A stretch of 63,927 bases of DNA, the filler included, from Thermoplasmatota archaeon (lineage in GTDB: Archaea > Thermoplasmatota > E2 > JACPAO01 > JAHFTW01), in NCBI GenBank assembly GCA_041623215.1. It is 6 parts of 6 records of this genome, joined end to end, with 100 filler letters (N's around TTAATTAATTAA, not from the genome) between each part and the next. Parts side by side here need not be neighbours in the genome. Positions count along the whole stretch, not along the records: positions 11,022 to 21,792 come from JBFJXH010000058.1; 5 more parts are not named here. One strand, written 5' to 3'. A program made the position numbers and the translations under genes. Positions 7,664 through 21,792 of the stretch are shown here, in pieces. The notes under the pieces are model-generated. The model saw nothing but the letters and a program-made list of their open reading frames with translations. It ran no database searches and was not told the origin of the DNA. How positions within the stretch are numbered: position 1 is the first letter of the stretch; the number at the start of each line of letters is the position of its first letter.

Positions 7664-10576
7664 CTAGGTCAGGGCAAGGCCTGGCTTGAAGGGTTCAGCG
7701 ACTGCGCGCTTCGGGTGGTCGTCTTGGTCGTCGTCAGCTGAGCGAATGGTGACCTTGGGGACGCCCAATTCCTTGGCGATGAACGCGGCTGCCCCAGACA
7801 GCGATGAAGCTTCATCCGCGTCCAGCAGCGGACGCTGCCATGGTGCCAGTTGTTTGACGGCGCCGGGCAATTTCCCGGCGTACTTTTGCACCGCCTTGCC
7901 GAGCGTCCGCATGCTGTCATCTGCCATGACGTCACCCATGAATTTGCCCATGGGGAATTTGCCAGTTGCTTATCCGTCCAAGGTCACGGCCCGGCGGAGC
8001 AATTCCGCCTTCCACTCGGACGTTGTAAAGACCATGAGCTCGGAAGGCTGCTCCAGGTCAGCTAGTTTTACGACTGTTTTGGCGTCGTCAAGGAATGCCT
8101 TGAGGTACTCTTCCCGGGCCAAAACCGCCGCCGCGCCGTCGGGTTCCTTCAGCGTGGGATAGTCCGCGGTCGCGCAGAGGCCCTGGCCGCCGGCTCGTGC
8201 CCACATTTCTTCGGCGGTGTGTGGCAAGACCGGACACAGGGCCGCGGCCCACGATTGCACGAGCTGTGCAAGGAGCGCGCCGTTGTTGCCGCCGCGCCGT
8301 TCGTACCACCGCAGCAGATCGGGAATTGTGTAGACAAGCTCGGTGGTAGCGGTTCGCAGGTCCATGGATTCCAGGGCGTCGCGGGCGTTGCCGATGGCGC
8401 TTCCCATCGCGGCTTCCAGCCAAGCATCCATCTGAGACGCCTCGCCGTCCGCTGCCAGCACATGGTCCACCATGCGTTGGATGCGGCCCACAGCATCGCG
8501 GTAGCCGCGCACCACGTCGGGGTCCCACTCAATATCTACGTGCGGACTTCCCACGTGGCAATAGTACAGCCGCATGGCGTCAATGCCGTATGCAGCGATG
8601 GCCCCGGGAATCGGTTCGGCCCCGCCCTTGGATTTGCTAATTTTGGCACCGGCTTGCTGCGTCACCCACCAATTGACGAAGATGCCACGGGGCCATTGCG
8701 CCGGGTCGTCCATCAAGCCCACCATGTTCATGATGTACACGGGGAAGTGGACCGTTTGGTGCTCCTTGCCGCCGAGGTTGATGTCCACCGGACCCCAATA
8801 CTGGACGTCGGCCCGGACCGCTTCCCAGACGTCCGCCTTCGCACCCGCCGATGCTGGCGGTGAGCCGTCGGCCGCGGCGCCTCGCCCATTGAAGACATAG
8901 TCGAAGAACGCGTCCGTCAGGTCCTCGGGTGCGAGGTCCCCCTTGGCGACGTAGAGGCTCACCAAGTAATACCAAGGATAGAACGTGGAATCGGCAATCG
9001 GCTCAATAATCCAATCGGGCTTGAAGGGGAAGGGCGTGCCCAGCCATGCACCACGGCGCACACAAGCGCGGTCGCCAAACCAATCGAGGGTATCTGCGAT
9101 GGTGTCCGCGTAACGCTGCGGCTGGATGGTCATGGAGGCCGCGTGCTCCTTGGCTCGTGCGGTCCACTCCTCGTCGGCGTAGTGAATGAAATCTTGGTCA
9201 GGGATGCGGCGCACATCAACCACTTCACCCGCACGACTCACCACGGGCTCGCTGAATTGCCGAATGATGCGACCGTCGTCGGCGTCGATGAAGCGTGTCC
9301 GCAGGTCGTCCTTGGCAGCCTTGACACGCTCGCCGGCAAGGTTGCCGCAGGCGTCGTTGAAGATGCCCTTGTTGAATTCGTCGCGGTAGATTTGGTCCGT
9401 GGCAGCTTCCAGGGCTTCGCGGTCGCCTTGGCTCTTGACGCCGTGCTGGTCGCAGGCGACGCGGGCGGGAAGGTCGTCGTAGCCCTCGATGCTGATGATT
9501 TGCGGCGGGGTGCCCAGTTCTTCCAGCAGGCCCGCGTCCCGGTAGGCGGCGTAGTCAAAGGGTGCGTGCGCTGGGACCGACATGACAATCCCGGTGGCAA
9601 TCATCGGGTCCACGAAGGTGCCCTGGACGACACGGACTTGGTGGCCGGTCACCGGTGCGGTGGCGACGAGATCAAGGAGTTGCTTGCCGTTCACGACGGT
9701 GCCTGTGGCCTCGGCGCGCTCCATTTGCCATTCTAGTTTGATGCGTCCTTGCTGGCTGACGACCCACAGTTCTGACGGGTCGTCGTCGGCTACGGCGCCA
9801 TCACGCCAGACGCGGACCAATTCGTAGTCGTGGTCTGGGTGCGCCCACAGGTTGGTGACGCCGTAGATGGTCTCGGGGCGAAGCGTCGCACAGGGCAGGA
9901 TGACGGGGGTGCCGTCGGTGAGCATGGCCGTGAACCGTAGTGCGATGAATTCGTTAATTTCGGCCGCGCCGCCGCTCTTGATGTCGGTCTCCGACTTGTC
10001 CACCGCCACGGGTCCGGCGACCGGGCAAAACGGTGCATAGTGAGGCTTCTGGATGAGCCAGCCGTGGTCATTGAGACGCCGGAATTGCCACTGGATGAAC
10101 GCCTGGTAACCGGGGTCAATGGTGGTTGCGTTACGCCGGTCGTCAATGAGGAACCCAAAGCGCTTCCAATAGTCGTGCGTGTAGACGTGGGCGAAGTAAT
10201 CGACGACCGCCTGTGGGTCTTTGAGGCGCGCGATCGGGCCGTCGCGCCCCTCGTCGTAGCCATTGGCGAGCAGGTAATCCGTCTTCTCGCCCCGTTCCAC
10301 TTCTTTGGCGAAGGCAACGGCCGGGATGCCGGATGCGTGGAAGCCAGCTGGGAACAGGACATTGTAGCCGGTTTGCCGCTTGAATCGGGTCAACACATCG
10401 GCGTAGGTGAAGCCGCGCATGTGTCCCACGTGCAGGTAGCCGCTGATGCCCGGGTAGGCGAAGTGAAGGAAGTAGGTGGGTTTGGACCGGTCCCCTGCTT
10501 CGGCATGGTGCAGGCGCTGCTCCCACCAGGCGGCTTGCCACTTGGCGGCGATGGCATCGTTGTCCCACTCGGGCAT
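7664..10576 (-). CDS. leuS: Archaeal-type leucyl-tRNA synthetase, interrupted by an in-frame TAA at 7970-7972
   Basis: AYPGISGYLHVGH (HIGH), CATLRPETIYG and GIVMSVPAHAPFD (editing domain), KISKSKG (KMSKS). The same frame continues after TAA to the archaeal C-terminus KRAVAEPFKPGLALT. Confidence 0.92.
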
Positions 10577-10712
10577 GATGACGGGCCGACCCTGGAGGGT
10601 CGTTTGAAGGGTTCGACCAGCCCTGCCGTGCCGCATGGCGCCGGGTTGGCCCCGTTTGGCGCGTTTGCGGGCAGAAGAACACTTCAAGACAAGGCCCGGG
10701 CTAGCCTTGCTC

Positions 10713-10921
10713 GTGGACGCCGCGCCCATCATCGAGCATTACCAAGCACGAGGCTACAAGGTGCTGGAAAACGAGCGTGTGCGCGACGACGATGGCACCA
10801 TCCACCACGTGGATTTGCTGGTGCAGGGTCGACTTGGAACGTTGGTGGTTGCCTTGGAGGACGAGGGGGGCTTCGAGGGCCCGGAAATGGGTAGCATCAA
10901 GCGCATTGGCCGCGCCTTGGG
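10713..10921 (+). CDS. Mrr/PD-(D/E)xK-like restriction-endonuclease-fold protein, truncated by contig end
   Basis: HYQARGYKVLENERVRDDDGTIHHVDLLV resembles the N-terminus of Mrr_cat domains. TTCAAG box at 10683-10688. Confidence 0.45.
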
Positions 10922-11021
10922 NNNNNNNNNNNNNNNNNNNNNNNNNNNNNNNNNNNNNNNNNNNNTTAATTAATTAANNNNNNNNNNNNNNNNNNNNNNN
11001 NNNNNNNNNNNNNNNNNNNNN
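10922..11021. other. Artificial contig linker (N44-TTAATTAATTAA-N44)
   Basis: 100-nt spacer with stops in all six frames; five identical copies in the window. Confidence 0.99.
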
Positions 11022-14000
11022 GCAATGTAATCGGCGACGGCGCGAAGCGTCGGGTAGTCCTTGATTTGCAAGCCATCCTGAAGCGGCACCTCATACGCCT
11101 CGCGAATCAAACCAAACAACTCCGCCTGCTTCACCGTATCAATCCCCAAATCCGCCTCCATGTCCAAATCAGGCTCCAGCAACTCTACCGGGTAGCCGGT
11201 CTTTTCGGCGACCAGTTTTGTCAATTGGGCGAGGACCGCGTCCGAATCCACGGCAGCGGCTGGCTCGGCGGTTGGTGCAGCTACGGGCGGCGAGGCGACA
11301 GCTTCCTCAATCGGAGATGGCGTTAGCGCTGAGTCAGACTCGACTTGGGCGACGGCGGGCGGCGGCTCGACATCGATCGTTTCAGCGCGGGCCCGCAGTT
11401 GGCGGTTTTCGACGAACAGGGCGGCTCGATTGGCGTTGACGGTGCTTCCAAGCCAAGCCTCGTATTGCATAGCATCGGCGACGCGTTCATTCTCACGGGC
11501 AACCAACTGCGTTAGCGTCATGGCGACTTGACTTCCGAAGCCCGCTGCCAAACGAACGGCATAACGAACATCCACCTCACCGCCATCGCTCAGACGGAGA
11601 TTGCCAAGCTCAGGGTCGGCATCACGGAAGTTGGCAATCGGGGGCGCCCGTCCACGTTGCAGACACTTGAGGGCGATGGCGTCCTCAACCCCGGCACCTT
11701 GCGGGTGTCCCGTGAAACCCTTGGTGTTGGCAATCGTTACCTGGTCAGCTGCGTCTCCAAATGCCTGGCGCAAGGCAGCGATTTCAGCCGAGGCACTTCC
11801 GCCTCGAGCCGGCGTGTAGGTTTCATGGCTCATGAAGAGGGTTTCACCGGCAATGGCGGCCGGGTCAAGTCCACTGGCTTGCACAAGCGCTCGCATCTCG
11901 GCCGCAATGTGAGCCACATCCAAACGGCTACCGTGGAAGGCAGAATTACTGATGCGTGTGGCCAACAGCCGTGCGATGGGCCGCATGCCCCGACTCGTGA
12001 TGCTTGCCTCATCCTCAACGACCAAGCCGACGGCCCCCATCCCCACAATCATTCCGTGGCGGCGTCGGTCAAACGGCAACGCTGCTTCGGCCACATCTTC
12101 CTTGGTCGTTGCAGCGCCAGCGGCTAGGAAACCTGCACCAATCCACTCAAAGAGGGCGTCGCTCGTTACATCGTCGGCGCCAATGACCACCACGCGGCGA
12201 GCTCGCCCGGTACGAATCCAATCCTCGGCGATGCCGATGGCTTGCGTCGTGCTAGCGCAGGCAGCGTTAACCTGCGTGTTAGGGCCACGCGCGCCAATGA
12301 ATTGCGCAAATTGCGAATGGCCCATGCTGAGAATGTGGAACAAGAAGCGGCGGTCAAACTCGCCGCCTGCCCGAATACGTTCGACCTCACGTAGAAGAGC
12401 GTCGTGGCCGGGAAACGCACTGGCAAAGATAATCCCCGTGTCATCCCGCATCGATGCAGGAAGCATCCAAGGACCTGGAAGGCGACTTCCCGTGCTGGTT
12501 GTCTTCCAAGTCTGAACTAGGGGAATCCCGGCGTCGCGGAGCGCTTCCAGACCGGCCGCCATGGCGTACTGGGTCGTTCGATCGAGCGTTTCAGTCAAGC
12601 CGGATGGAATACCAAACTCGGCTGCGTCAAACGAGCCGGCTTGCCCGGCCAGCCGGATTACTTGATCCGTTGCCGTAATTGCCTCAAAGTCTGCTGAACC
12701 GTCGTCGCCCTTGCGAAGCCGCGTGATTTTCTTGCCGACAAGTCGCGCGCGCGTGCTCTCGTCAACCGCATCGATAAGGTTCTCACCCGCCAAAATTCGG
12801 TCGAAGTTGTCGGGGTCAAATACTGACTTGTTGCGGCCGGGAAGCCCCACACTCACGCCACTCACAGCGACCGAAACGCGCTCCGGTACAGCCGCCTCAA
12901 GTGGCCGCCCTCCGGCATGGGCCGGCATGGAAATCGGGCGCGAATTGCCTGCTCCCGGACGGTTATCCGGCCGCATGAACGCCGCTCTGGGATCCAGATG
13001 TTCAGCAGTATAAACGGCCCCGTCTTGCAGGCTTGGCAATTGGGGCTCATAGCCCCATGCTCCCAGGAAAGCAAACAATTCGTTGACGTGTGTGATGCCA
13101 CCCTTTTTGGGATGATTGCTGGCGATGGCTACGCTGCCGCCTTTGCCCTGCAGGATGTCGTTGGCAAATCCGGTAAGGGCCTTCTTGGGACCAACTTCAA
13201 TGAAGGTTCGAACACCATCCTCGAACATTTTCTCCACGATGCCAATCCATTCAACGGGCGAGGCCACCTGCTTCGCTAAGTTGTCGCGAATCGCTTCCGG
13301 GTCATCGGGATAATCTGCGGCACCCACATTGCTGATTACCCGAACACTGGGAGGTTGGACGTTCAAGCGGCCTAGAACACGGCGCAGCGGTTCACTGGCG
13401 GGAGCGACGATGCTTGAATGGAATGCCGCTGAAACGGGCAGTTCAACAACCGAGAGGCCGCGCGACTCACAAGCTGACATCGCCTTGATGACGGCTTCGC
13501 TGGCGCCGGCAATGACGGTCTGGCTGGGGCAATTCTTGTTGGCGGGAATAACGTAGCCATCCACGTTGGCAATGGCGTCTTGCACCGTTTGCCAATCCGC
13601 AGAGACGCTTGCCATCTTGCCGAGATCGGGTACGTCCACGCCAGCCATCTCGCGGCCCCGCGCCGCCACCGCATGCAGCGCGTCTTCGAAGCTGAGGACC
13701 TCCGCCGCCACGAGCGCACCGTATTCACCCAGGCTGTGCCCAGCGACCACATCAGGCTGGATGCCCCATTGGCGGAGCAACCGAAGCAGGGCAACATCCG
13801 CCGCCAACACGGCCGGCTGCGTAAATTCTGTCAGTCGCAATTTTTCTTCCGCGGCCTTGCGCGTGTCGGGTGTGTCCGGCGTTGGCCAGATGACATCCGT
13901 CAATTTGCAGCCAATTTCGGATTCCAAGACGCGATCGGCCTCGCGGAAGGTTTCCGCAACCACCCGGTATTTGGCCGCCAAATCCCGGCACATGCCAACA

Positions 14001-15913
14001 TACTGAGTGCCTTGGCCGGGGAAGAGAAACGCCACCTTGCCCTTGGGCTTACCTTGGCCCAAGAAGACACCCTGATTGAACGCGAGGCGCCCCGCTCCCT
14101 TGGGGTCCGCCATGGCACGTTCGGCAAGTGCCAGGCGCTTGGGCACGTCTGCAGGATCGGCGACTTCGAAGCCCACCCGCTGCTCGGCAAGAACGCCGTG
14201 GGCAGTGACACCGTGCAGACGGTCACGAAGGCGGGGTCCTTCGCCATTGGCTGCAAAGGATACGGCCCCAAGTTCCGCGCCTACACCGGGCGCATCGAGC
14301 GCCGAAGCCACCAGTGGCTCTGCTTCCAGCATGGCGCCACCGGCGGCCATGTGTGCGGCAAACGCTCCTTGGTCAAACGTAGCAGCGCCTGCTTCTACCG
14401 GGATAGCGGCCGCTTCGACTTCGCCTGCCAAAGCAAGGTCATCCGGCATGGCATTGGTGGCTTCCTCCAGCACTACGTGGAAGTTTGTGCCGCCAAATCC
14501 GAAGGACGATACGGCTGCACGGCGCGGGTGATGGGGCGGGCGGGGGAACTCTTGCACTTCCCGGGCGACGGTGAAGGGCGCTGTATCCCATTGGATGCGT
14601 GGATTGAGCGTTTCGACGTTCAGGCTCGGGGGAATTCGTCCATGCTTCAAGCAAAGGGCGGTCTTCAGGACGCCGGCCGCACCTGCGGCAGCCTTGAGGT
14701 GGCCAATGTTGCTCTTGACGGAACCGACCGCAATGCTACCCGGTGCAGCGCTTGCTTGTGCATCGACAAAAGCGGCCGCCACCGACTCCAGTTCTGTTGG
14801 GTCCCCAACCGGGGTGCTTGTTCCATGCGCTTCGAGGTAACCGATGGTTGCCGGGTCAATGCCGGCTGCTTCGTACGCGCGACGCACGGCCTTGACCTGC
14901 CCCGCCGGATTGGGCGCTGTAATTCCCTTGCCCTTGCCATCACTGCTGGCGCCGATGCCGCGAATCGTGGCATACACTTGGTCACCGTTGGCTAGGGCAT
15001 CCGACAAGCGCTTGAGGACGAACATGGCACAGCCTTCGCCCATGACAAAACCATTGGCGGCCGCATCAAAGGGCCGCGAGCCGTCCGGGGACAACGCTCC
15101 AATCTTGCTGAATTGGATGTAAGCCGTTACGTCCATGGAACGGTCACTACCGCCCCAGACGACCACATCGTTTTCGCCCCGGCGCAAGGTATCCACGGCA
15201 GCATCAAGGGCGGCCAAGCTGCTAGCGCAAGCTGCGTCGGTCGTGAAGTTCTTGCCGCCGAGGTCGAACGCGTTGGCAATGCGCCCGGCGGCCACATTGC
15301 TCAGATGCCCAGGCATGGTGTCTTCGGTGACTGGATTTGTGTTTGCCTTGAACGTCGTCTCCACGCGTTCGAGAACGGCGTCCCGACGCGAGTCCGGCAG
15401 GGCCTGGAAATCGGGGTCCGCCCGCAAGGCGGCTGCGACTTCGGGCCAGTAGAGACGCTTGCTCACGGCTTTTTGGATTTCTCCACCCATCGCGTTTCCG
15501 AGGATGACGGCGCAGCGATCACGGTCGAAGGCCGCGCCATCGTCGCCCCGTAGTCCTGTTGCCAGCCCCGCGTCCAGCAATGCCTGCCGGGTGGCCGATA
15601 GCGCCCAGCGCTGGCTAGCATCCACCTGATTGACCACGTTGGGTGGCATGCGATAGGCCAAGCCGTCGAAGGCATCATCCATGACGAAAGCCCCAATCTT
15701 GGCGTACGTCTTGTCGGCTGCCTTACGGTCGTCCGACCAAAACAAGTCGGGGTCCCAGCGGTCCTTGGGCACCTCGCGGATGCTCGAGCGGCCGGCGAGC
15801 AGGTTGTTCCAAAAGGTGGCAACATCGGGTGCATCAGGCAAGACACAGCCGGCGCCGACGATGGCAATGGGTTCGTTCGGATGCGAGCGGGGGGACGGAG
15901 TCATAGTGGACAT
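11022..15913 (-). CDS. Type I polyketide/fatty-acid synthase (KS-AT-KS-ACP...), 3'-truncated at contig end
   Basis: KS1 about 15875-14460 (DAACASS, EAHGTST, KSNIGHL, SSFGFGGTN). AT about 14040-13060 (FPGQG, GHSLG, SAAFHS). KS2 about 12880-11510 (NAACAST, SHETYT, TKGFTGH, GFGS). Pro/Ala/Glu linker, then ACP about 11245-11022 (KTGYP, DLGIDTVKQ). Confidence 0.93.
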
Positions 15914-16011: not shown

Positions 16012-17715
16012 CTACAGGGGCGTGAGCCCGTGCTTTTTCTCCGGACGTGTCTCCCGCTTGTTGAGAGCGGGAAGCAGCGCGGCGATGAGGCGCGGGCGGG
16101 TTTCGCGAGGCTCGATGATATCGTCAATCCACCCTCGTTCTGCTGCCACGTAGGGGTTGTTGAAGGCCTCCTGGTATTCCTGCGTGAACGCCTCCTTGAG
16201 GCGAGCCGCTTCTTCGGGGTCGTCCTCCGCCAGGGCCGCCAGCTTGCGCTTGTGAATGATTTCCACGGCGCCACTTGCACCCATGACGGCGATTTCGGCG
16301 GCAGGCCAGCTGAGATTGCAGTCGGTGCCCACGTGCTTCGAGCCCATGACGATGTAGGCGCCGCCGTAGGACTTGCGTAGCACGACGCTCAGTTTGGGCA
16401 CGGTCGCCTCGCAATAGGCATACAGCAATTTGGCGCCGTTGCGGATGATGCCGCCATGTTCTTGGCCAAGTCCCGGCAGGAATCCAGGCACGTCTACGAA
16501 GCTGATGATGGGGATGTTGAAGGCATCACAGAAGCGAATGAATTTGGCGCCCTTGATGCTGGCTTCGATGTCCAAGGCGCCGGCGAGGACGGCGGGTTGG
16601 TTGGCGACAATTCCAACTGGGACACCGGCCATGCGGCCAAAGCCCACGACGAGGTTTTGGGCCCAGCGCGGTTGCACCTCGAAGAAGCTTCCCACATCCA
16701 CCACGTGATCCACGACGTCCCGAACATCGTACGGCTTTCCTGGGTCGGATGGAACCAGGGTGTCCAATTCGGGGTCGCGGCGGTCAGCCGGGTCTTCGGC
16801 CTCGACGATTGGCAATTCGCCGAGATTGTTGCTGGGCAAGTAGCTCAGCAATTTCCGAATAAGGGCGATGGAGCCATCCTCATCCAGACCACTGAAACTT
16901 GCCACGCCAGACTTGATTTCATGCACCGTTGCCCCGCCCAGCTCTTCCTGGGTTGCCTCTTCCCCGGTGACCGTTTTGACCACGTCGGGGCCAGTGACGA
17001 ACATGTGGCTCGTCTTGTCTGTCATGATGACGAAGTCGGTCAGCGCAGGCGAATAGACGGCGCCGCCGGCGCTGGGGCCGACAATGACGGAGATTTGCGG
17101 AACTACGCCGCTTGCTTCGACATTCTTGAAGAAAATGTCCCCATACCCGGCAAGACTGGCAACGCCCTCTTGGATCCGCGCGCCGCCCGAGTCATTGAAG
17201 CCTATGACGGGGGCCCCCATTTGCATGGCCTGCTTGAGTGTCTTGGCAATCTTTTGGCCGGTTGCGTGGCCCAGGCTGCCACCAAGCACCGTGAAGTCTT
17301 GCGAATAAACGAACACGAGGCGACCGTCAATGGTGCCGTGGCCGCATACCACGCCGTCGCCGTCAAACCGATTCTTGTCGAGTCCAAACGTGGTCGCTTG
17401 GGTCCGCACGAACGGGTCCATCTCAACGAAGGTCCCTGCATCTAGGAGAAGTTCGATGCGTTCTCGTGCCGTGTACTTGCCTTTGGCATGTTGGGATTCG
17501 ATGCGCTTGGCGCCACCGCCTTGCAGGGCCTTGGCCTTGCGCTCGCGAAGCGCGTCGATGGCACTCGCGCTCCCACTTGCCCCTGCATCGTGGTTTGGCT
17601 GCGTGTCGTCCGCTCTACCGCGCAGGCTGTCAGGTTGGAGGACCACTGGTTCAGAGGCCCCGTTACTGGCCGCCGATTCGTCCGCGCTGGGCGAGGCGGG
17701 CGTGGTTGGACTCAT
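16012..17715 (-). CDS. Acyl-CoA carboxylase carboxyltransferase subunit (PccB/AccD family)
   Basis: GKYTARERI, QDFTVLGGSLG, DSGGARIQEG, DVPGFLPG, RKSYGGAY, KKHG C-terminus. Confidence 0.95.
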   Translation of the reverse strand: MSPTTPASPSADESAASNGASEPVVLQPDSLRGRADDTQPNHDAGASGSASAIDALRERKAKALQGGGAKRIESQHAKGKYTARERIELLLDAGTFVEMDPFVRTQATTFGLDKNRFDGDGVVCGHGTIDGRLVFVYSQDFTVLGGSLGHATGQKIAKTLKQAMQMGAPVIGFNDSGGARIQEGVASLAGYGDIFFKNVEASGVVPQISVIVGPSAGGAVYSPALTDFVIMTDKTSHMFVTGPDVVKTVTGEEATQEELGGATVHEIKSGVASFSGLDEDGSIALIRKLLSYLPSNNLGELPIVEAEDPADRRDPELDTLVPSDPGKPYDVRDVVDHVVDVGSFFEVQPRWAQNLVVGFGRMAGVPVGIVANQPAVLAGALDIEASIKGAKFIRFCDAFNIPIISFVDVPGFLPGLGQEHGGIIRNGAKLLYAYCEATVPKLSVVLRKSYGGAYIVMGSKHVGTDCNLSWPAAEIAVMGASGAVEIIHKRKLAALAEDDPEEAARLKEAFTQEYQEAFNNPYVAAERGWIDDIIEPRETRPRLIAALLPALNKRETRPEKKHGLTPL

Positions 17716-17889: not shown

Positions 17890-18252
17890 TCAGCGAGCCA
17901 ACAGCACAACGCCCAGGACAATCAGGGCCGCCCCGGCAAGTTTGGGCGCCGTCATTGCCTCGCCGAACCACAAGGCGCTGGCAACGAAGACCAGCACCAG
18001 CCCCAAGCTCGTCATGGTGGGATAGGCCACTGATAGTTGGATGCGCGTCAGGGCGAAGCTGTAGAACGCGAGGGCCAGCGCGAAGCTGACGATGCCCGCT
18101 ACTAGCCACCCGTCCGTGTAAAGCCGGGCGAGGCTACGGGCCGTGGCTACGCCATCGCCGTTTCTGGCAGCGACCTTGAGCAGGATGTTGGCCGTGGCGT
18201 TCAGGACTAAGCCAACGCCCAAGCTCCCCCAATGGAGGACCCCCGCCTGCAT
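17890..18252 (-). CDS. SMR/EamA (DMT) small membrane protein, candidate lipid-phospho-sugar flippase
   Basis: 4 TM, ANILLK, LSVAYP and FGE motifs. ATG overlaps the upstream TGA (TGATG), with GGAGGT before it. Confidence 0.8.
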   Translation of the reverse strand: MQAGVLHWGSLGVGLVLNATANILLKVAARNGDGVATARSLARLYTDGWLVAGIVSFALALAFYSFALTRIQLSVAYPTMTSLGLVLVFVASALWFGEAMTAPKLAGAALIVLGVVLLAR

Positions 18253-19709
18253 CAAGTGACCTCCCTCTGCAGCCACCACGGCAGCCCCACATTGCCTCGC
18301 TTGGTCTTGGCATCCACGAGGCCAGTCCGGCGACCCAATTCGCTCGTGAACTGGCCCTCCGGGTCCAAGCGGTCGCGGATCTTCCGCCAACGGTCCAGCT
18401 GCGGGTACATCGCGGCGACCGTGTCCACATCCATGCACGCATCCTTGGCCAGATAATTTCGCCCCCCATGCGCCAATACTATGGCATCAAGATCTTTGCA
18501 AAATGCGTGAACGCCCGGTTTGGCTGGCATGTCGAGAGCGAGCGTTGCGCCTGGCATGGGGAAGCTGAGCGGCGCCTGCGGCTCGCCGTTACCAAAGCGC
18601 TTGAGGACCGCTAACGGGCTACTTCGTCCGGCCCGGGCCACCTTGGCCAAGATCGCCCGCAAACCTTCCCGCTCTGCATCTGGTGGCAGGACACATTGGT
18701 ATTGGATGAAGCCACGACGCCCATACAAACGGTTCCACTTACCAATGGCATCCAACGGATAGAAATAGGGCAGCATAGGCACCACATGCTTGCCTTCCTT
18801 GGCACGCCCGTAGTAGGCAGCATTGAAGCCTCGGACGGTCCAACGATTCAGGCCCCACCCCGGTGCGTTAAGCGGTATGCCCGGCCGCCGCGGGGGGCGG
18901 AGGGCCAGCGGCTCGTCGGTGGCGGGCACATCATCGGGCGCAGCGTGGTCCGCTTGCATGAGAACCGACCGACCTAGCTGGTCGCCCTTCGCGGCGCAAT
19001 CAATCCAAGCCATGGAGCATTGGAAATCTTGGTCGGTCGCGTGAAAAGCGTCGAGAGCCGCATCGAGATTGGGCGCCTTTGTTGTGGTGGAAGACATCCA
19101 CGCAGACCCAATTGGTTGCAATGCCAGCGTCACATCTAGGATGACACCGGTAAGGCCCATGCCCCCAAGAGTCGCAAAGTAAGCCTCCTTGTTACGGTGG
19201 CGCGTGCAGCGTAGGAGGCGCCCACGGCCATCAAGCAGAGTAAAGGCCAGAACATGCCGACCAAAGGAACCAGCCTCGTGGTGATTCTTGCCGTGCACAT
19301 CCGCGGCGACCGCCCCGCCAAGCGTCACAAACCAGGTGCCAGGGGTTACGGGCAAGAACCAACCGCGCGGCCCGAACGTGGTCACGATTGCCTGCAGGCT
19401 AAGGCCCGCCTCAGCCCGAAGGACTCCTGTTTCCTCGTTCCAGTCAAGGACACCGTCAAGCGCCGTCAAATCCACCACGCCCCCGTTGCCGACGCTGTTG
19501 AGTGCGGCGTCCCCATACGACCGGCCGAGCCCACGGGGAATCATGGGCGCCGCGTGCCGGGTCGCATACGGGACGTCGTCGCGACTCGGTGGCCGCATGA
19601 CGTCGCAGTCCAAGCGGGGATGATTACCCCAGCCCGATAGTCGCTCGCGTGACGCCATGCCAGGTGGCGCCTCCTCATCGAGCGTTGTACGTCCTGCGGA
19701 CCGGCTCAT
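18252..19709 (-). CDS. DprE1-like FAD-binding oxidoreductase (prenyl-phosphoribose 2'-oxidase family)
   Basis: RGLGRSYGD, VTPGTWFVTLGGAVAADVHGKNHH, FIQYQ, LKRFG, LSFP, YLAKD. ATGA overlap with the ubiA-like stop; alternative start at 19658. Confidence 0.88.
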   Translation of the reverse strand: MSRSAGRTTLDEEAPPGMASRERLSGWGNHPRLDCDVMRPPSRDDVPYATRHAAPMIPRGLGRSYGDAALNSVGNGGVVDLTALDGVLDWNEETGVLRAEAGLSLQAIVTTFGPRGWFLPVTPGTWFVTLGGAVAADVHGKNHHEAGSFGRHVLAFTLLDGRGRLLRCTRHRNKEAYFATLGGMGLTGVILDVTLALQPIGSAWMSSTTTKAPNLDAALDAFHATDQDFQCSMAWIDCAAKGDQLGRSVLMQADHAAPDDVPATDEPLALRPPRRPGIPLNAPGWGLNRWTVRGFNAAYYGRAKEGKHVVPMLPYFYPLDAIGKWNRLYGRRGFIQYQCVLPPDAEREGLRAILAKVARAGRSSPLAVLKRFGNGEPQAPLSFPMPGATLALDMPAKPGVHAFCKDLDAIVLAHGGRNYLAKDACMDVDTVAAMYPQLDRWRKIRDRLDPEGQFTSELGRRTGLVDAKTKRGNVGLPWWLQREVT

Positions 19710-20569
19710 GCCACGCTTCCTGCCTGGAGAACGAGCCACATGCTCAGTAGGCCATACGCCAGCACCGTGGCCAACAGTGGCCAGTCGCGCACCAGCGCTT
19801 CCGTGGGTGATTCCCCAGCCGCCGTGTGCTCAACAATGAACCAGTAGCGAAACACGCCGAGTAGAACAAGCGGCAGCGTCGGCGTAAGCTCGGGGCGCAC
19901 GGTCGCAACAAAGAAGCCATAGAACACCACCGTGCTGGTGGCTGCTACTACGGCGTAGCGGTCGAGAAGAGGCAAGGTGTAGGACCCGAGGACGGAGCGT
20001 GCCTCTGGGCCCTGATGCTCCAACTCGGCTCGTCGTTTCATGACCACCAAGAAGAGACTCAGGGAAAGCGTCGCCACGAGCATCCAGTTGCTGACGGCGA
20101 CGGCGATGGCCGCAGCTCCGCCGTAAACCCGGAGCACAAAACCCGCGCTCACAGCAAACAAGTCCAGGACGGGCACTTGCTTCAATCCGATGCTGTAAGC
20201 AACGTTGAGGACAATGTAGCCCGCTGCGAAGGCAGCCACCTTGGGCATGAACCATGCACCGATGGCGCCGGCCGCAATGAGGGCCACGAGCACGGCCAAG
20301 GCGACCTGCGGACTAACGGCACCACTTGCCAGCGGGCGGTGGCGCTTGTCTGGATGCCGCGCGTCTGCCTCGCGGTCACGAAGATCATTGACCACGTACA
20401 CCGCACTTGCCGCCACCGTGAACAGAGCCACCGCGGCCAGCGCCGACAGCGTCGAAGGCACATCGCTAAAGCGGCCGCTGAAGATCAACGGGGCCAATAC
20501 GAAGGCGTTCTTGATCCACTGCTGGGGCCGCAGCAGGCGGATGACGGCGGGCATGCCTCCGTCGCTCAC
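19706..20569 (-). CDS. UbiA-family decaprenyl/polyprenyl-phosphate phosphoribosyltransferase (Rv3806c-like)
   Basis: LLRPQQWIKN, YVVNDLRDREADARHPDKRHRPLASG, GFVLRV, KRRAEL, GESPTE. GGAGGT SD and TTTTCAAG box at 20591-20598. Confidence 0.9.
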   Translation of the reverse strand: MSDGGMPAVIRLLRPQQWIKNAFVLAPLIFSGRFSDVPSTLSALAAVALFTVAASAVYVVNDLRDREADARHPDKRHRPLASGAVSPQVALAVLVALIAAGAIGAWFMPKVAAFAAGYIVLNVAYSIGLKQVPVLDLFAVSAGFVLRVYGGAAAIAVAVSNWMLVATLSLSLFLVVMKRRAELEHQGPEARSVLGSYTLPLLDRYAVVAATSTVVFYGFFVATVRPELTPTLPLVLLGVFRYWFIVEHTAAGESPTEALVRDWPLLATVLAYGLLSMWLVLQAGSVA

Positions 20570-20692
20570 GAACCTCCACTTGGAGCCCTGCTTGAAAACA
20601 CGGCGGTCCGTTCACAGACCCCTTTGGGCAACGCGCGTGGGCCGTCAGCACGCCAAGCGTAGCGTGCGCCGTAGTCATCATCAGCCCCGGCG

Positions 20693-21792
20693 CTACGGAG
20701 TCCAGCCAAGGGGGCGAAGCTCGTAGGCATGCATCAGACCGTACGGCCGCGTGGCATTGACACGCCAGCCCTCAGCTTCCAGGAGGTCAATGACCGCGTC
20801 GCCGTCAATGACGTGGTCAATCACCAACCAAGCCTGCGTTTCGTTGGCTAGCCAGTTGCGCACATAGGGCCCCGACTCATCCATGTCCCTGGTGCGATGC
20901 AACCCGATGACACTGCGCAGGTTCAGATCATCTCTCGTTTGATAGTATTCGAAGACGCAGAACCAATCATCGTCGCGACGGTCATCACAAAGCCCCTCGT
21001 GGAACAATACGTAGGCCCCGGGGTACGCGTGCGTTTCAATGTCGGCCGTCATGCCACGCCAATCCCAGCGAGCAGGATGCCTTGTTTCGCCTACGCCATC
21101 CAGACTTCCGACCAACAAAAGGACAAGAAACACCGGCGCGACCAGACGCGCGGGGACGCGCATGGCACCGCGAACCACCAGCAGAATAAGCGCGGGGAGC
21201 GCCAGGACCGCGTAGCGAGGGGTGAAGATCGGTGGCCCCACCAATGAAAAAAGAAGGGGCAGTAACACGCCTGCCGTCCACCAAATAACCGGTAAGGCAG
21301 CCCCCTTGCGCCAGCGCCAAAGACCCCAAGTAACCAGGATGGCCCACAGGGGCGCAATGAGGTAACTACCGGCTTGCCACCGCACGGTTGCCATCAGGTC
21401 GTCGATGCTTGGCGGGGGAATCCAGAACCCCTGGGACACCCGATTGGCGCGGTCCAAGAAGACGAGGCCATACCAAGGCAAGGCAGCAATGGCTAGGGCC
21501 ACATGCGCCCACCACCAATGTCGCGGGAGGCCGGGAAGCCAAGCAAGGACGGGGGAACGCCACCCCGATGTGGCCGGCGCCGGCTCACCTTCCTTGGGAA
21601 TTTCGGGAGGTGCGCGATTGCTTGCAGGTCCAGTTTCGACGTGCTCAGCCGGCGAGAATTGGCTCGCCAAGGTGGCTGTCGGCGGCGGGTCAAGGCCGTC
21701 ATGCCAGGCCCACCAGGCGGCAGTCAACACGTGCGCCAGGGCGATGAAGAGGCCAAACACGTGCGTATGAATGAGCAGGAACAGTAGCGCCA
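20693..21792 (-). CDS. GT-C fold membrane glycosyltransferase (GT39/PMT/ArnT-like), 5'-truncated
   Basis: Frame open to the contig end. IHTHVFG motif, multiple TMs, FWIPPP, PIFTPRY, DWRG and an extracellular C-terminal domain. Confidence 0.7.

Follow-up and report, generated by a model that had tools for sequence, protein, structure and literature searches.

Threonine at the phosphopantetheine position of a Type R synthase in archaea and bacteria

Serine is treated as the universal attachment site for phosphopantetheine (Ppant) on acyl carrier proteins (ACPs), and a Ser-to-Thr substitution serves as the dead control. In a 63,927-nucleotide stretch of DNA (the window) from a metagenome-assembled genome (MAG) of a Thermoplasmatota archaeon (GCA_041623215.1, here G000), we identified a large synthase gene whose carrier domains have threonine at this position; the threonine is real and conserved, and is not a sequencing error. 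By its sequence, the synthase is a member of the Type R family of secondary lipid synthases, an architecture that is already catalogued, although we found neither its threonine carriers, nor any natural threonine ACP, nor an archaeal fatty acid synthase (FAS) of type I described in the literature searched (main texts, mostly open-access). We consider it quite probable, from sequence comparison, that the cognate phosphopantetheinyl transferase (PPTase) loads Ppant onto the threonine, and on balance we favor an iterative type I synthase with threonine carriers loaded by a fused PPTase, an enzyme that probably synthesizes fatty acyl chains de novo. If the PPTase does load threonine, this would be an undescribed form of phosphopantetheinylation, and a family of thousands running on threonine would revise the serine rule.

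Threonine occupies the phosphopantetheine position

The window joins six unrelated contigs of G000 (1.94 Mb, 62.7% GC, 88% complete, 0.04% contamination) with linkers of N. The synthase open reading frame (ORF) runs from 15913 to 11024 on the minus strand, and its translation includes ...DLDMEADLGIDTVKQAELFG...; the motif DLGIDTVKQAE places Thr1593 at the canonical phosphopantetheine position.

11024..11239, minus strand: first ACP domain, motif DLGIDTVKQAE (Pfam, PDB sequence search, AlphaFold2, Foldseek)
11135..11137, minus strand: ACG codon of Thr1593 (sequence, Logan contigs)

Pfam PP-binding (PF00550) covers residues 1563-1630 above cut-off (E 3e-7), and residues 1561-1630, the ACP domain with Thr1593, contain no serine. 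An AlphaFold2 model of the domain (pLDDT 93), built from 27 aligned domains, has Thr35 as the first residue of helix II; Foldseek with this model recovers AcpP structures at TM ~0.8, and the best PDB sequence match is PigH, in which the serine of DLGVDS/DLGIDS aligns with the window threonine. The domain has the helical ACP fold, with threonine instead of serine at the start of helix II, and the initial annotation of a carrier domain with an ACG-encoded threonine is confirmed by ORF translation, Pfam, and the fold model.

That annotation allowed for a single TCG-to-ACG error, and the gene does lie in a fragmented MAG, split over three contigs. We give practically no credence to an error of sequencing or assembly, nor to a pseudogene in decay: Logan contigs from two runs of one study, possibly the source of the MAG, cover 11135-11137 with no differences, a second, diverged ACP copy on contig C179 also has threonine, encoded by ACC, and intact threonine genes are present in a same-genus genome (G375, three ACP copies, ACC/ACG/ACC) and a same-family genome (G093). 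All four threonine codons are used (ACC 115, ACG 99, ACA 17, and ACT 8 among 239 copies at 78 loci), and more than 800 distinct threonine domains occur in relatives, in line with the recurrence of LGIDTVKQ raised in the initial annotation. Codon reassignment or mistranslation was dropped by reasoning, as many phyla use all four ACN codons at this position and the acyltransferase (AT) has a normal AGC for its catalytic serine. We also looked for another serine as attachment site and found no conserved serine column (maximum 30%); 158 of 820 threonine domains lack serine in any of the model columns. Serine ACPs downstream, a possibility raised at the outset, were found in neither the gene nor the genome, and the threonine in the C179 copy rules them out further along the same gene.

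Threonine and serine among relatives

Our first tally, of 78 GTDB loci ranked by ACP likeness, gave 239 threonines and no serine and is not an unbiased count; we therefore chose homolog sets by other domains and read the ACP column with a hidden Markov model in which the attachment position was masked. Homologs do not mostly have serine; threonine predominates in every set. Choosing by the second ketosynthase (KS2; best 120 of 3743) yielded 353 domains from 119 of the 120 proteins: 346 threonine, no serine, six degenerate, and one cut. A set chosen by the ketoreductase-dehydratase (KR-DH) region of Marine Group II (MGII) had threonine in 373/373 ACP domains, and a set chosen by an acidobacterial first ketosynthase (KS1) had 271 threonine, no serine, and two cut domains in 103 of 120 proteins. 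In a metagenome scan (5/64 parts) with a pattern that permitted either residue and fixed V/I-K-Q-A-E after it, we counted 290 threonines and 11 serines, at 116 and seven, respectively, of 123 loci.

Serine does occur, and the proposition that it never does in Type R carriers is rejected by copies in Thermoplasmatota family f12, in Asgard archaea, and in metagenomes. In four of 12 f12 genomes, the synthase of the FabI-synthase operon reads DSIKQAE; a PPTase adjoins it in three of these, and the region in the fourth reaches the contig edge. We infer that f12, sister to family f29 in our trees, is MGIIb. Mixed Ser-Thr-Ser arrays with a fused PPTase are present at two of 20 Asgard loci. Both the f12 and the Asgard serines nest inside threonine clades, with two Thr/Ser changes on a 38-row tree and three after two PfaA outgroup rows are added. 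Intact copies have only serine or threonine, and six visibly degenerate copies lack the motif, the pattern expected of an attachment hydroxyl; since serine appears in intact orthologous operons nested in threonine clades, the position behaves as an interchangeable hydroxyl. As judged from these sequences, threonine is not obligatory at the attachment position, and the initial view of it as a conserved feature holds for nearly all relatives examined and fails for the minority of orthologs with serine.

Several variants were seen along the way. The Ser-Thr-Ser synthases lie at L114:3377-13933, with PlsY and biotin ligase genes just upstream, and at L115:5349-13535, where overlapping split ORFs and a second PPTase copy make an assembly artifact possible. 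Degenerate ACP-like copies without Thr/Ser flank intact threonine copies in one Asgard branch (L096, L097, P0054, P0058, and P0059), and some Thermoplasmatota versions (L074:5011-14310, P0048) have extra threonine ACPs N-terminal to KS1. Two spirochaete genomes (G018 and G046) encode a second threonine-ACP synthase with three ketosynthase (KS)-like domains, ordered ER-KS-KS-AT-KS2-ACPn-KR-DH (ER, enoyl reductase), at L133:5416-16560 and L134:6597-18413. The cultured actinomycete Nonomuraea gerenzanensis has a synthase with a single threonine ACP (L136:8878-16629), with no PPTase, FabI, or ER match within ~12 kb on either side.

Architecture of the synthase and its operon

The gene is truncated at the end of contig C58, where it encodes the following:

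11024..15913, minus strand: synthase N-terminal 1630 aa (KS1-AT-KS2-ACP...), truncated at the C58 end (ORF, Pfam)
14447..15874, minus strand: KS1, PfaA-like ketosynthase; Cys229 (15227-15229), His363, and His405 intact
13124..14038, minus strand: AT (malonyl acyltransferase, MAT); GHS Ser727 (13733-13735), AAFH His832
11504..12883, minus strand: KS2, second ketosynthase (labeled chain length factor, CLF, in 2011); Cys1219, His1363, and His1403 intact
16012..17715, minus strand: acyl-CoA carboxylase carboxyltransferase (Pfam), PccB/MmdA-like, directly upstream of the synthase

The end of C58 shares 141 identical bases with contig C179, which encodes the second threonine ACP followed by KR and DH. 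C179 in turn overlaps C37 over 186 bases, of which 183 are identical, and translation stays in frame into an Sfp-type PPTase. The domain order across the three contigs is KS1-AT-KS2-ACPx2-3-KR-DH-PPTase, and because the ACP stretch has ~2x the depth of its flanks in aligned contigs, G000 probably has three ACPs. The G375 homolog has the order KS1-AT-KS2-ACPx3(Thr)-KR-DH-PPTase on one contig (2769 aa), with a carboxyltransferase gene before it and a FabI-like gene directly downstream. The whole G093 chain (3048 aa), also on one contig, lies between the carboxyltransferase gene and bioY-like, biotin carboxylase, and biotin carboxyl carrier protein (BCCP) genes. Gene order in G000 is the same, with biotin carboxylase, BCCP, and a BioY-like gene (assigned by eye, without an NCBIfam match) after the PPTase on C37. 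The carboxyltransferase likely supplies a malonyl- or methylmalonyl-CoA extender.

G000 encodes all of the KS, AT, ACP, KR, DH, and ER activities that make up the gene content of a type I FAS, and its only two KS-C domains are both in the synthase. The active sites are intact across the family: KS1 Cys-His-His, KS2 Cys-His-His, and AT Ser-Arg-His are invariant in 304/304 synthases, as are the KR tyrosine (277/277) and the DH histidine (270/270). KS chemistry requires a thioester donor. Outside its own family, the best matches of KS2 in the plasmid collection are FabF-type ketosynthases (28-31%), and the synthase looks, on its domain content, like a self-priming iterative type I enzyme.

Its closest named relatives are Thermoplasmatota, and bacterial contamination of the bin was rejected given the shared gene order in G375 and G093, the presence of the synthase in 15/18 family members, and the 0.04% contamination. 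One record titled Proteobacteria (L019), with a fused PPTase, groups with Thermoplasmatota rows and is probably mislabeled.

The cognate PPTase

G000 has a single PF01648 match, in frame at the synthase C-terminus, and three PF00550 matches, all of them threonine domains. Neither G000 (88% complete) nor the single-contig genome G084 (96% complete) yielded a serine ACP; G084 has three PF00550 matches, all threonine, and one PPTase. Exactly one PPTase is present in 17/18 archaeal genomes tested; most Elusimicrobia have an AcpS-sized PPTase plus the cognate one. A PPTase match accompanies 58 of the 78 loci, and is fused in nine. At ~210 aa with (S/T)H, G(I/V)D(L/I)E, and WxxKExxxK motifs, the G000 enzyme is of the Sfp type; its best PDB matches are 1qr0 and 4mrt (E 5e-7), and it retains the equivalents of H90, D107, E109, E151, and K155, residues with functional roles in Sfp. 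Across an alignment of 150 PPTases, some ten of which are non-cognate, the motif columns are 98-100% conserved.

The cognate PPTases share an N-terminal KRxxEW/HxxGR motif that the ordinary Sfp/HetI types encoded by these genomes lack. A similar motif is present in EntD, so KRxxEWxxGR need not be threonine-specific. On the co-occurrence with a specific PPTase clade raised initially, the cognate enzymes form a recognizable Sfp/EntD-like group, but a threonine-specific mechanism could not be demonstrated. E19, K27, and R61 are kept in 13/13 threonine-linked MGII PPTases and missing in three from a serine clade (one clade, in which drift is possible). For compatibility with Sfp, the positions named are -3 (Gly), +1 (hydrophobic), and +4 (Met) (PMC11744666); the threonine carriers fit at -3 and +1, with Ala at +4 in 96%.

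Distribution and links to fatty acid synthesis

A synthase ACP match is present in 122/401 Thermoplasmatota genomes, concentrated in particular families: 62/62 in f29, 15/15 in f21, 15/18 in the family of G000, 7/8 in f13, and 12/39 in f12, compared with 0/59 in f5 and 0/48 in f9. The genomes of f29, which homologs with 70% identity identify by name as Poseidoniaceae, are small. MGII clusters are a minimal three-gene operon, FabI-synthase-PPTase. A PF01553 acyltransferase is found in all 122 synthase-bearing Thermoplasmatota genomes versus 42 of the other 279. Separately, family f26 (10/10) and part of f12 have PF01553 acyltransferases without a synthase ACP match, which fits fatty acid scavenging.

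G000 itself encodes G1PDH-like (glycerol-1-phosphate dehydrogenase) and GpsA-like proteins and three PF01553 (PlsC-family) genes (loci noted for this gene set: C3:1810-2250, C9:16536-17000, C110:4201-4575), suggesting that both glycerol-phosphate backbones may be available; PlsY has no match in this genome.

Among Asgard genomes, 44/251 have a synthase ACP match. At 20 loci, 17 synthases are single ER-KS-AT-KS-ACPn-KR-DH-PPTase chains, one is split, and two have FabI downstream; the neighboring genes (46 of 144 listed ORFs scanned) chiefly encode biotin ligase, subunits of carboxylase, and an alpha/beta hydrolase, with PlsY seen once. PlsY is present in 40 of the 44 synthase-bearing genomes and either PlsY or PF01553 in all 44, counted in synthase carriers alone.

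Of 151 Elusimicrobiota genomes, 59 matched; two of these (G777 and G834, weak) have Ser-type PfaA and were removed, leaving 57, in 13 of which threonine was read directly. None of the 57 is among the 88 genomes with FabF. In 5/5 Elusimicrobiales genomes the synthase holds the sole AT domain, and in an Elusimicrobium minutum MAG the KS-C and AT domains are found only in the synthase; G029, one of three Elusimicrobiales tested for KS-C, has two extra stand-alone ketosynthases. Asgard, MGII, Elusimicrobiota, and Chloroflexota members group separately in our trees, which do not fix the deep order, and we claim no donor.

Comparison with known systems

Type R synthases were described in Koribacter, Solibacter, Elusimicrobium minutum, and Roseiflexus (Shulse & Allen 2011, PMC3098273) as KS-MAT-second KS(CLF)-ACPn-KR, with three to six ACPs, a linked PPTase, and sometimes an acetyl-CoA carboxylase gene. 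The G000 synthase has the same KS-MAT-second KS-ACPn-KR order on one chain, with two to three ACPs, and the PPTase that directly follows Type R genes is here fused in frame; the E. minutum homolog (L072), which has four threonine ACPs, is within our analyzed set. The G000 synthase differs from the published description in having a DH, a fused PPTase, and an archaeal host, and the second KS that was labeled CLF keeps its Cys-His-His throughout the family. The main text of PMC3098273 mentions neither threonine nor archaea, and PMC3250452 places the E. minutum KS near a C. thermocellum KS. A KS1+AT tree separates 31 Type R rows (including the window, L072, L077, and L016) from two PfaA rows at 100/100, so that the window synthase groups with members from E. 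minutum, Acidobacteria, and Chloroflexota; the two PfaA rows are the whole sample of the nearest Ser-bearing sister family.

PfaA (TIGR02813) is the best NCBIfam match of the window synthase and is homologous in KS1, AT, tandem ACPs, KR, and DH; however, with 669 bits for the window fragment and 939 bits for a homolog of full length from Asgard, both are below the cut-off of 1010 bits. PfaA proteins (L273, L274) have serine (DSIKRVEI), lack KS2, and have a separate PfaC-like gene, whereas the G000 synthase has threonine ACPs and KS2, and the KS-C domains of G000 are found in the synthase only; we thus do not class it as the polyunsaturated fatty acid synthase PfaA. Enediyne polyketide synthases (PKSE) and the fungal FAS alpha chain also carry a C-terminal PPTase on the ACP chain, with serine carriers and no known second KS. 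The PKSE order is KS-AT-ACP-KR-DH-PPTase, which makes a polyene without an ER, whereas a FabI or FabK-type ER travels with the gene described here.

According to a Sulfolobus preprint (bioRxiv 10.1101/2024.07.05.601840), both FAS I and FAS II appear to be missing from archaea, as ACP nearly always is; the archaeal fatty acid route proposed there is thiolase/CoA-based, in contrast to the ACP- and PPTase-containing type I chain here. Papers on MGII and Asgard archaea (PMC6461757, PMC6336850, PMC7852524, PMC13037920, PMC9723677) discuss fatty acid degradation, glycerol 3-phosphate backbones, and mixed membranes, and their excerpts name no ACP-based synthase; two others (PMC8049014, bioRxiv 2024.11.23.624595) are irrelevant to the subject. 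An ACP-based archaeal synthase would have implications for membrane biomarkers and the lipid divide, and a complete one in abundant ocean archaea and Asgard makes the mixed-membrane question directly testable.

A proposed mechanism and its alternatives

We propose that the fused Sfp-type PPTase would transfer Ppant from CoA to the threonine hydroxyl, that the carboxylase would provide malonyl- or methylmalonyl-CoA, and that AT would load this extender onto the arm. KS1, KR, and DH would run reducing cycles with the FabI-like ER, or with a fused FabK-like ER in the majority of Asgard archaea and a few other archaeal cases, and KS2 may prime or extend the chain; the acyl chains could then pass to glycerol-phosphate acyltransferases, giving ester lipids beside the archaeal ether lipids. 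In its broadest form, which we advance tentatively and rate a little short of an even chance, a dedicated PPTase/ACP pair with threonine-borne Ppant serves a true self-priming type I FAS that is the primary FAS of one Elusimicrobiota branch and, for MGII, other Thermoplasmatota, and part of Asgard, the de novo route to fatty acids that has been missing, feeding fatty-acyl glycerolipids. The pair could also be orthogonal to other carriers and so of potential use in labeling and engineering.

Several observations weigh against this proposal. The S36T form of Escherichia coli ACP is unmodifiable and nonfunctional, and cannot replace acpP (PMC3340395, PMC9456370; S36T is also a variant in PMC13343975); the substitution, position, and fold are the same as here, although that is an engineered dead control and this a natural majority state with a dedicated PPTase. 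Stand-alone Ser-AcpP scores over cut-off in 38/50 host genomes (most bacterial carriers), where it could act in trans, compared with 0/8 named archaea. FabF is retained in 11/51 hosts (Chloroflexota and Acidobacteriota), so the synthase there need not be the primary FAS. The FabI-like gene of G000, on contig C163, has 51% identity to the MGII one and is below the NCBIfam cut-off, and no thioesterase was seen in the G000 synthase cluster. For Asgard, the PF01553 link is not supported (15/44 versus a background of 84/251); kinship makes the co-occurrence counts interdependent, and a single event may account for the split in Elusimicrobiota. Sequence alone fixes neither chain length nor product.

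In one alternative the threonine carriers are loaded but the product is a specialised lipid (a very long, hydroxylated, or methyl-branched acyl chain, a wax, a glycolipid, or a storage lipid) instead of bulk membrane fatty acid, which we regard as unlikely though deserving of serious attention. The nearest characterized model is PfaA, Shulse & Allen classed Type R under secondary lipids, and some synthases sit beside FabF; moreover, the PccB/MmdA-like carboxyltransferase could yield methylmalonyl-CoA, an unusual chain length could result from the pair of KS domains, and G000 retains its G1PDH-like gene. Such a role sits poorly with the exclusion of FabF and the sole AT in Elusimicrobiota, with the FabI pairing in MGII operons and the ubiquity of the synthase in the small f29 genomes, and with the scanned clusters, in which no tailoring genes were seen. 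That the threonine bears something other than plain Ppant, or requires an accessory factor or further modification, we judge very unlikely. An invariant K-Q-A-E follows the threonine, where PfaA has K-R-V-E, and the N-terminal motif sets the cognate PPTases apart, but the standard CoA/Mg motifs are kept, the KQAE context is the same in the serine variants, and the minimal MGII operon showed no conserved gene beyond its three.

Threonine domains that are structural and never modified, with acyl groups borne in trans by a serine ACP or directly by CoA, are very improbable in our estimation. In favor are the use of S36T as the standard dead-ACP control, the AcpP of many host genomes, and the ACP-independent CoA-based route described in the Sulfolobus preprint (bioRxiv 2024.07.05.601840). 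However, this would leave a fused PPTase with intact catalytic residues without a substrate, and most Elusimicrobia keep the cognate PPTase alongside an AcpS-sized one; dead copies drift at the motif, as the six degenerate ones do, whereas threonine is fixed across four codons. Of the two options in the initial annotation, the evidence favors a threonine-linked arm far more than a structural ACP, to judge by the lack of a serine ACP in G000, the fusion of its sole PPTase to the same chain, and the threonine in the downstream ACP. Flugel et al. (2000) reportedly saw AcpS load S36T in vitro at ~5%.

Other features of the window

Two features lie to the left of the synthase:

10922..11021, no strand: artificial C57/C58 linker, N/TTAATTAATTAA, joining unrelated contigs
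7970-10732, contig C57: class I tRNA synthetase with leucyl editing domain (leucyl-tRNA synthetase, LeuRS), unrelated to the synthase

The LeuRS gene was ruled out as part of the synthase gene, being on a different contig. Upstream of the carboxyltransferase on C58, the minus strand of 17890-21760 encodes a small protein of the SMR/EamA type, an oxidase that binds FAD (FAD_binding_4 + ALO), a prenyltransferase of the UbiA family, and a membrane protein with no match in Pfam. These genes resemble those for decaprenyl-phosphoribose/arabinose (DprE1-like), here in an archaeon.

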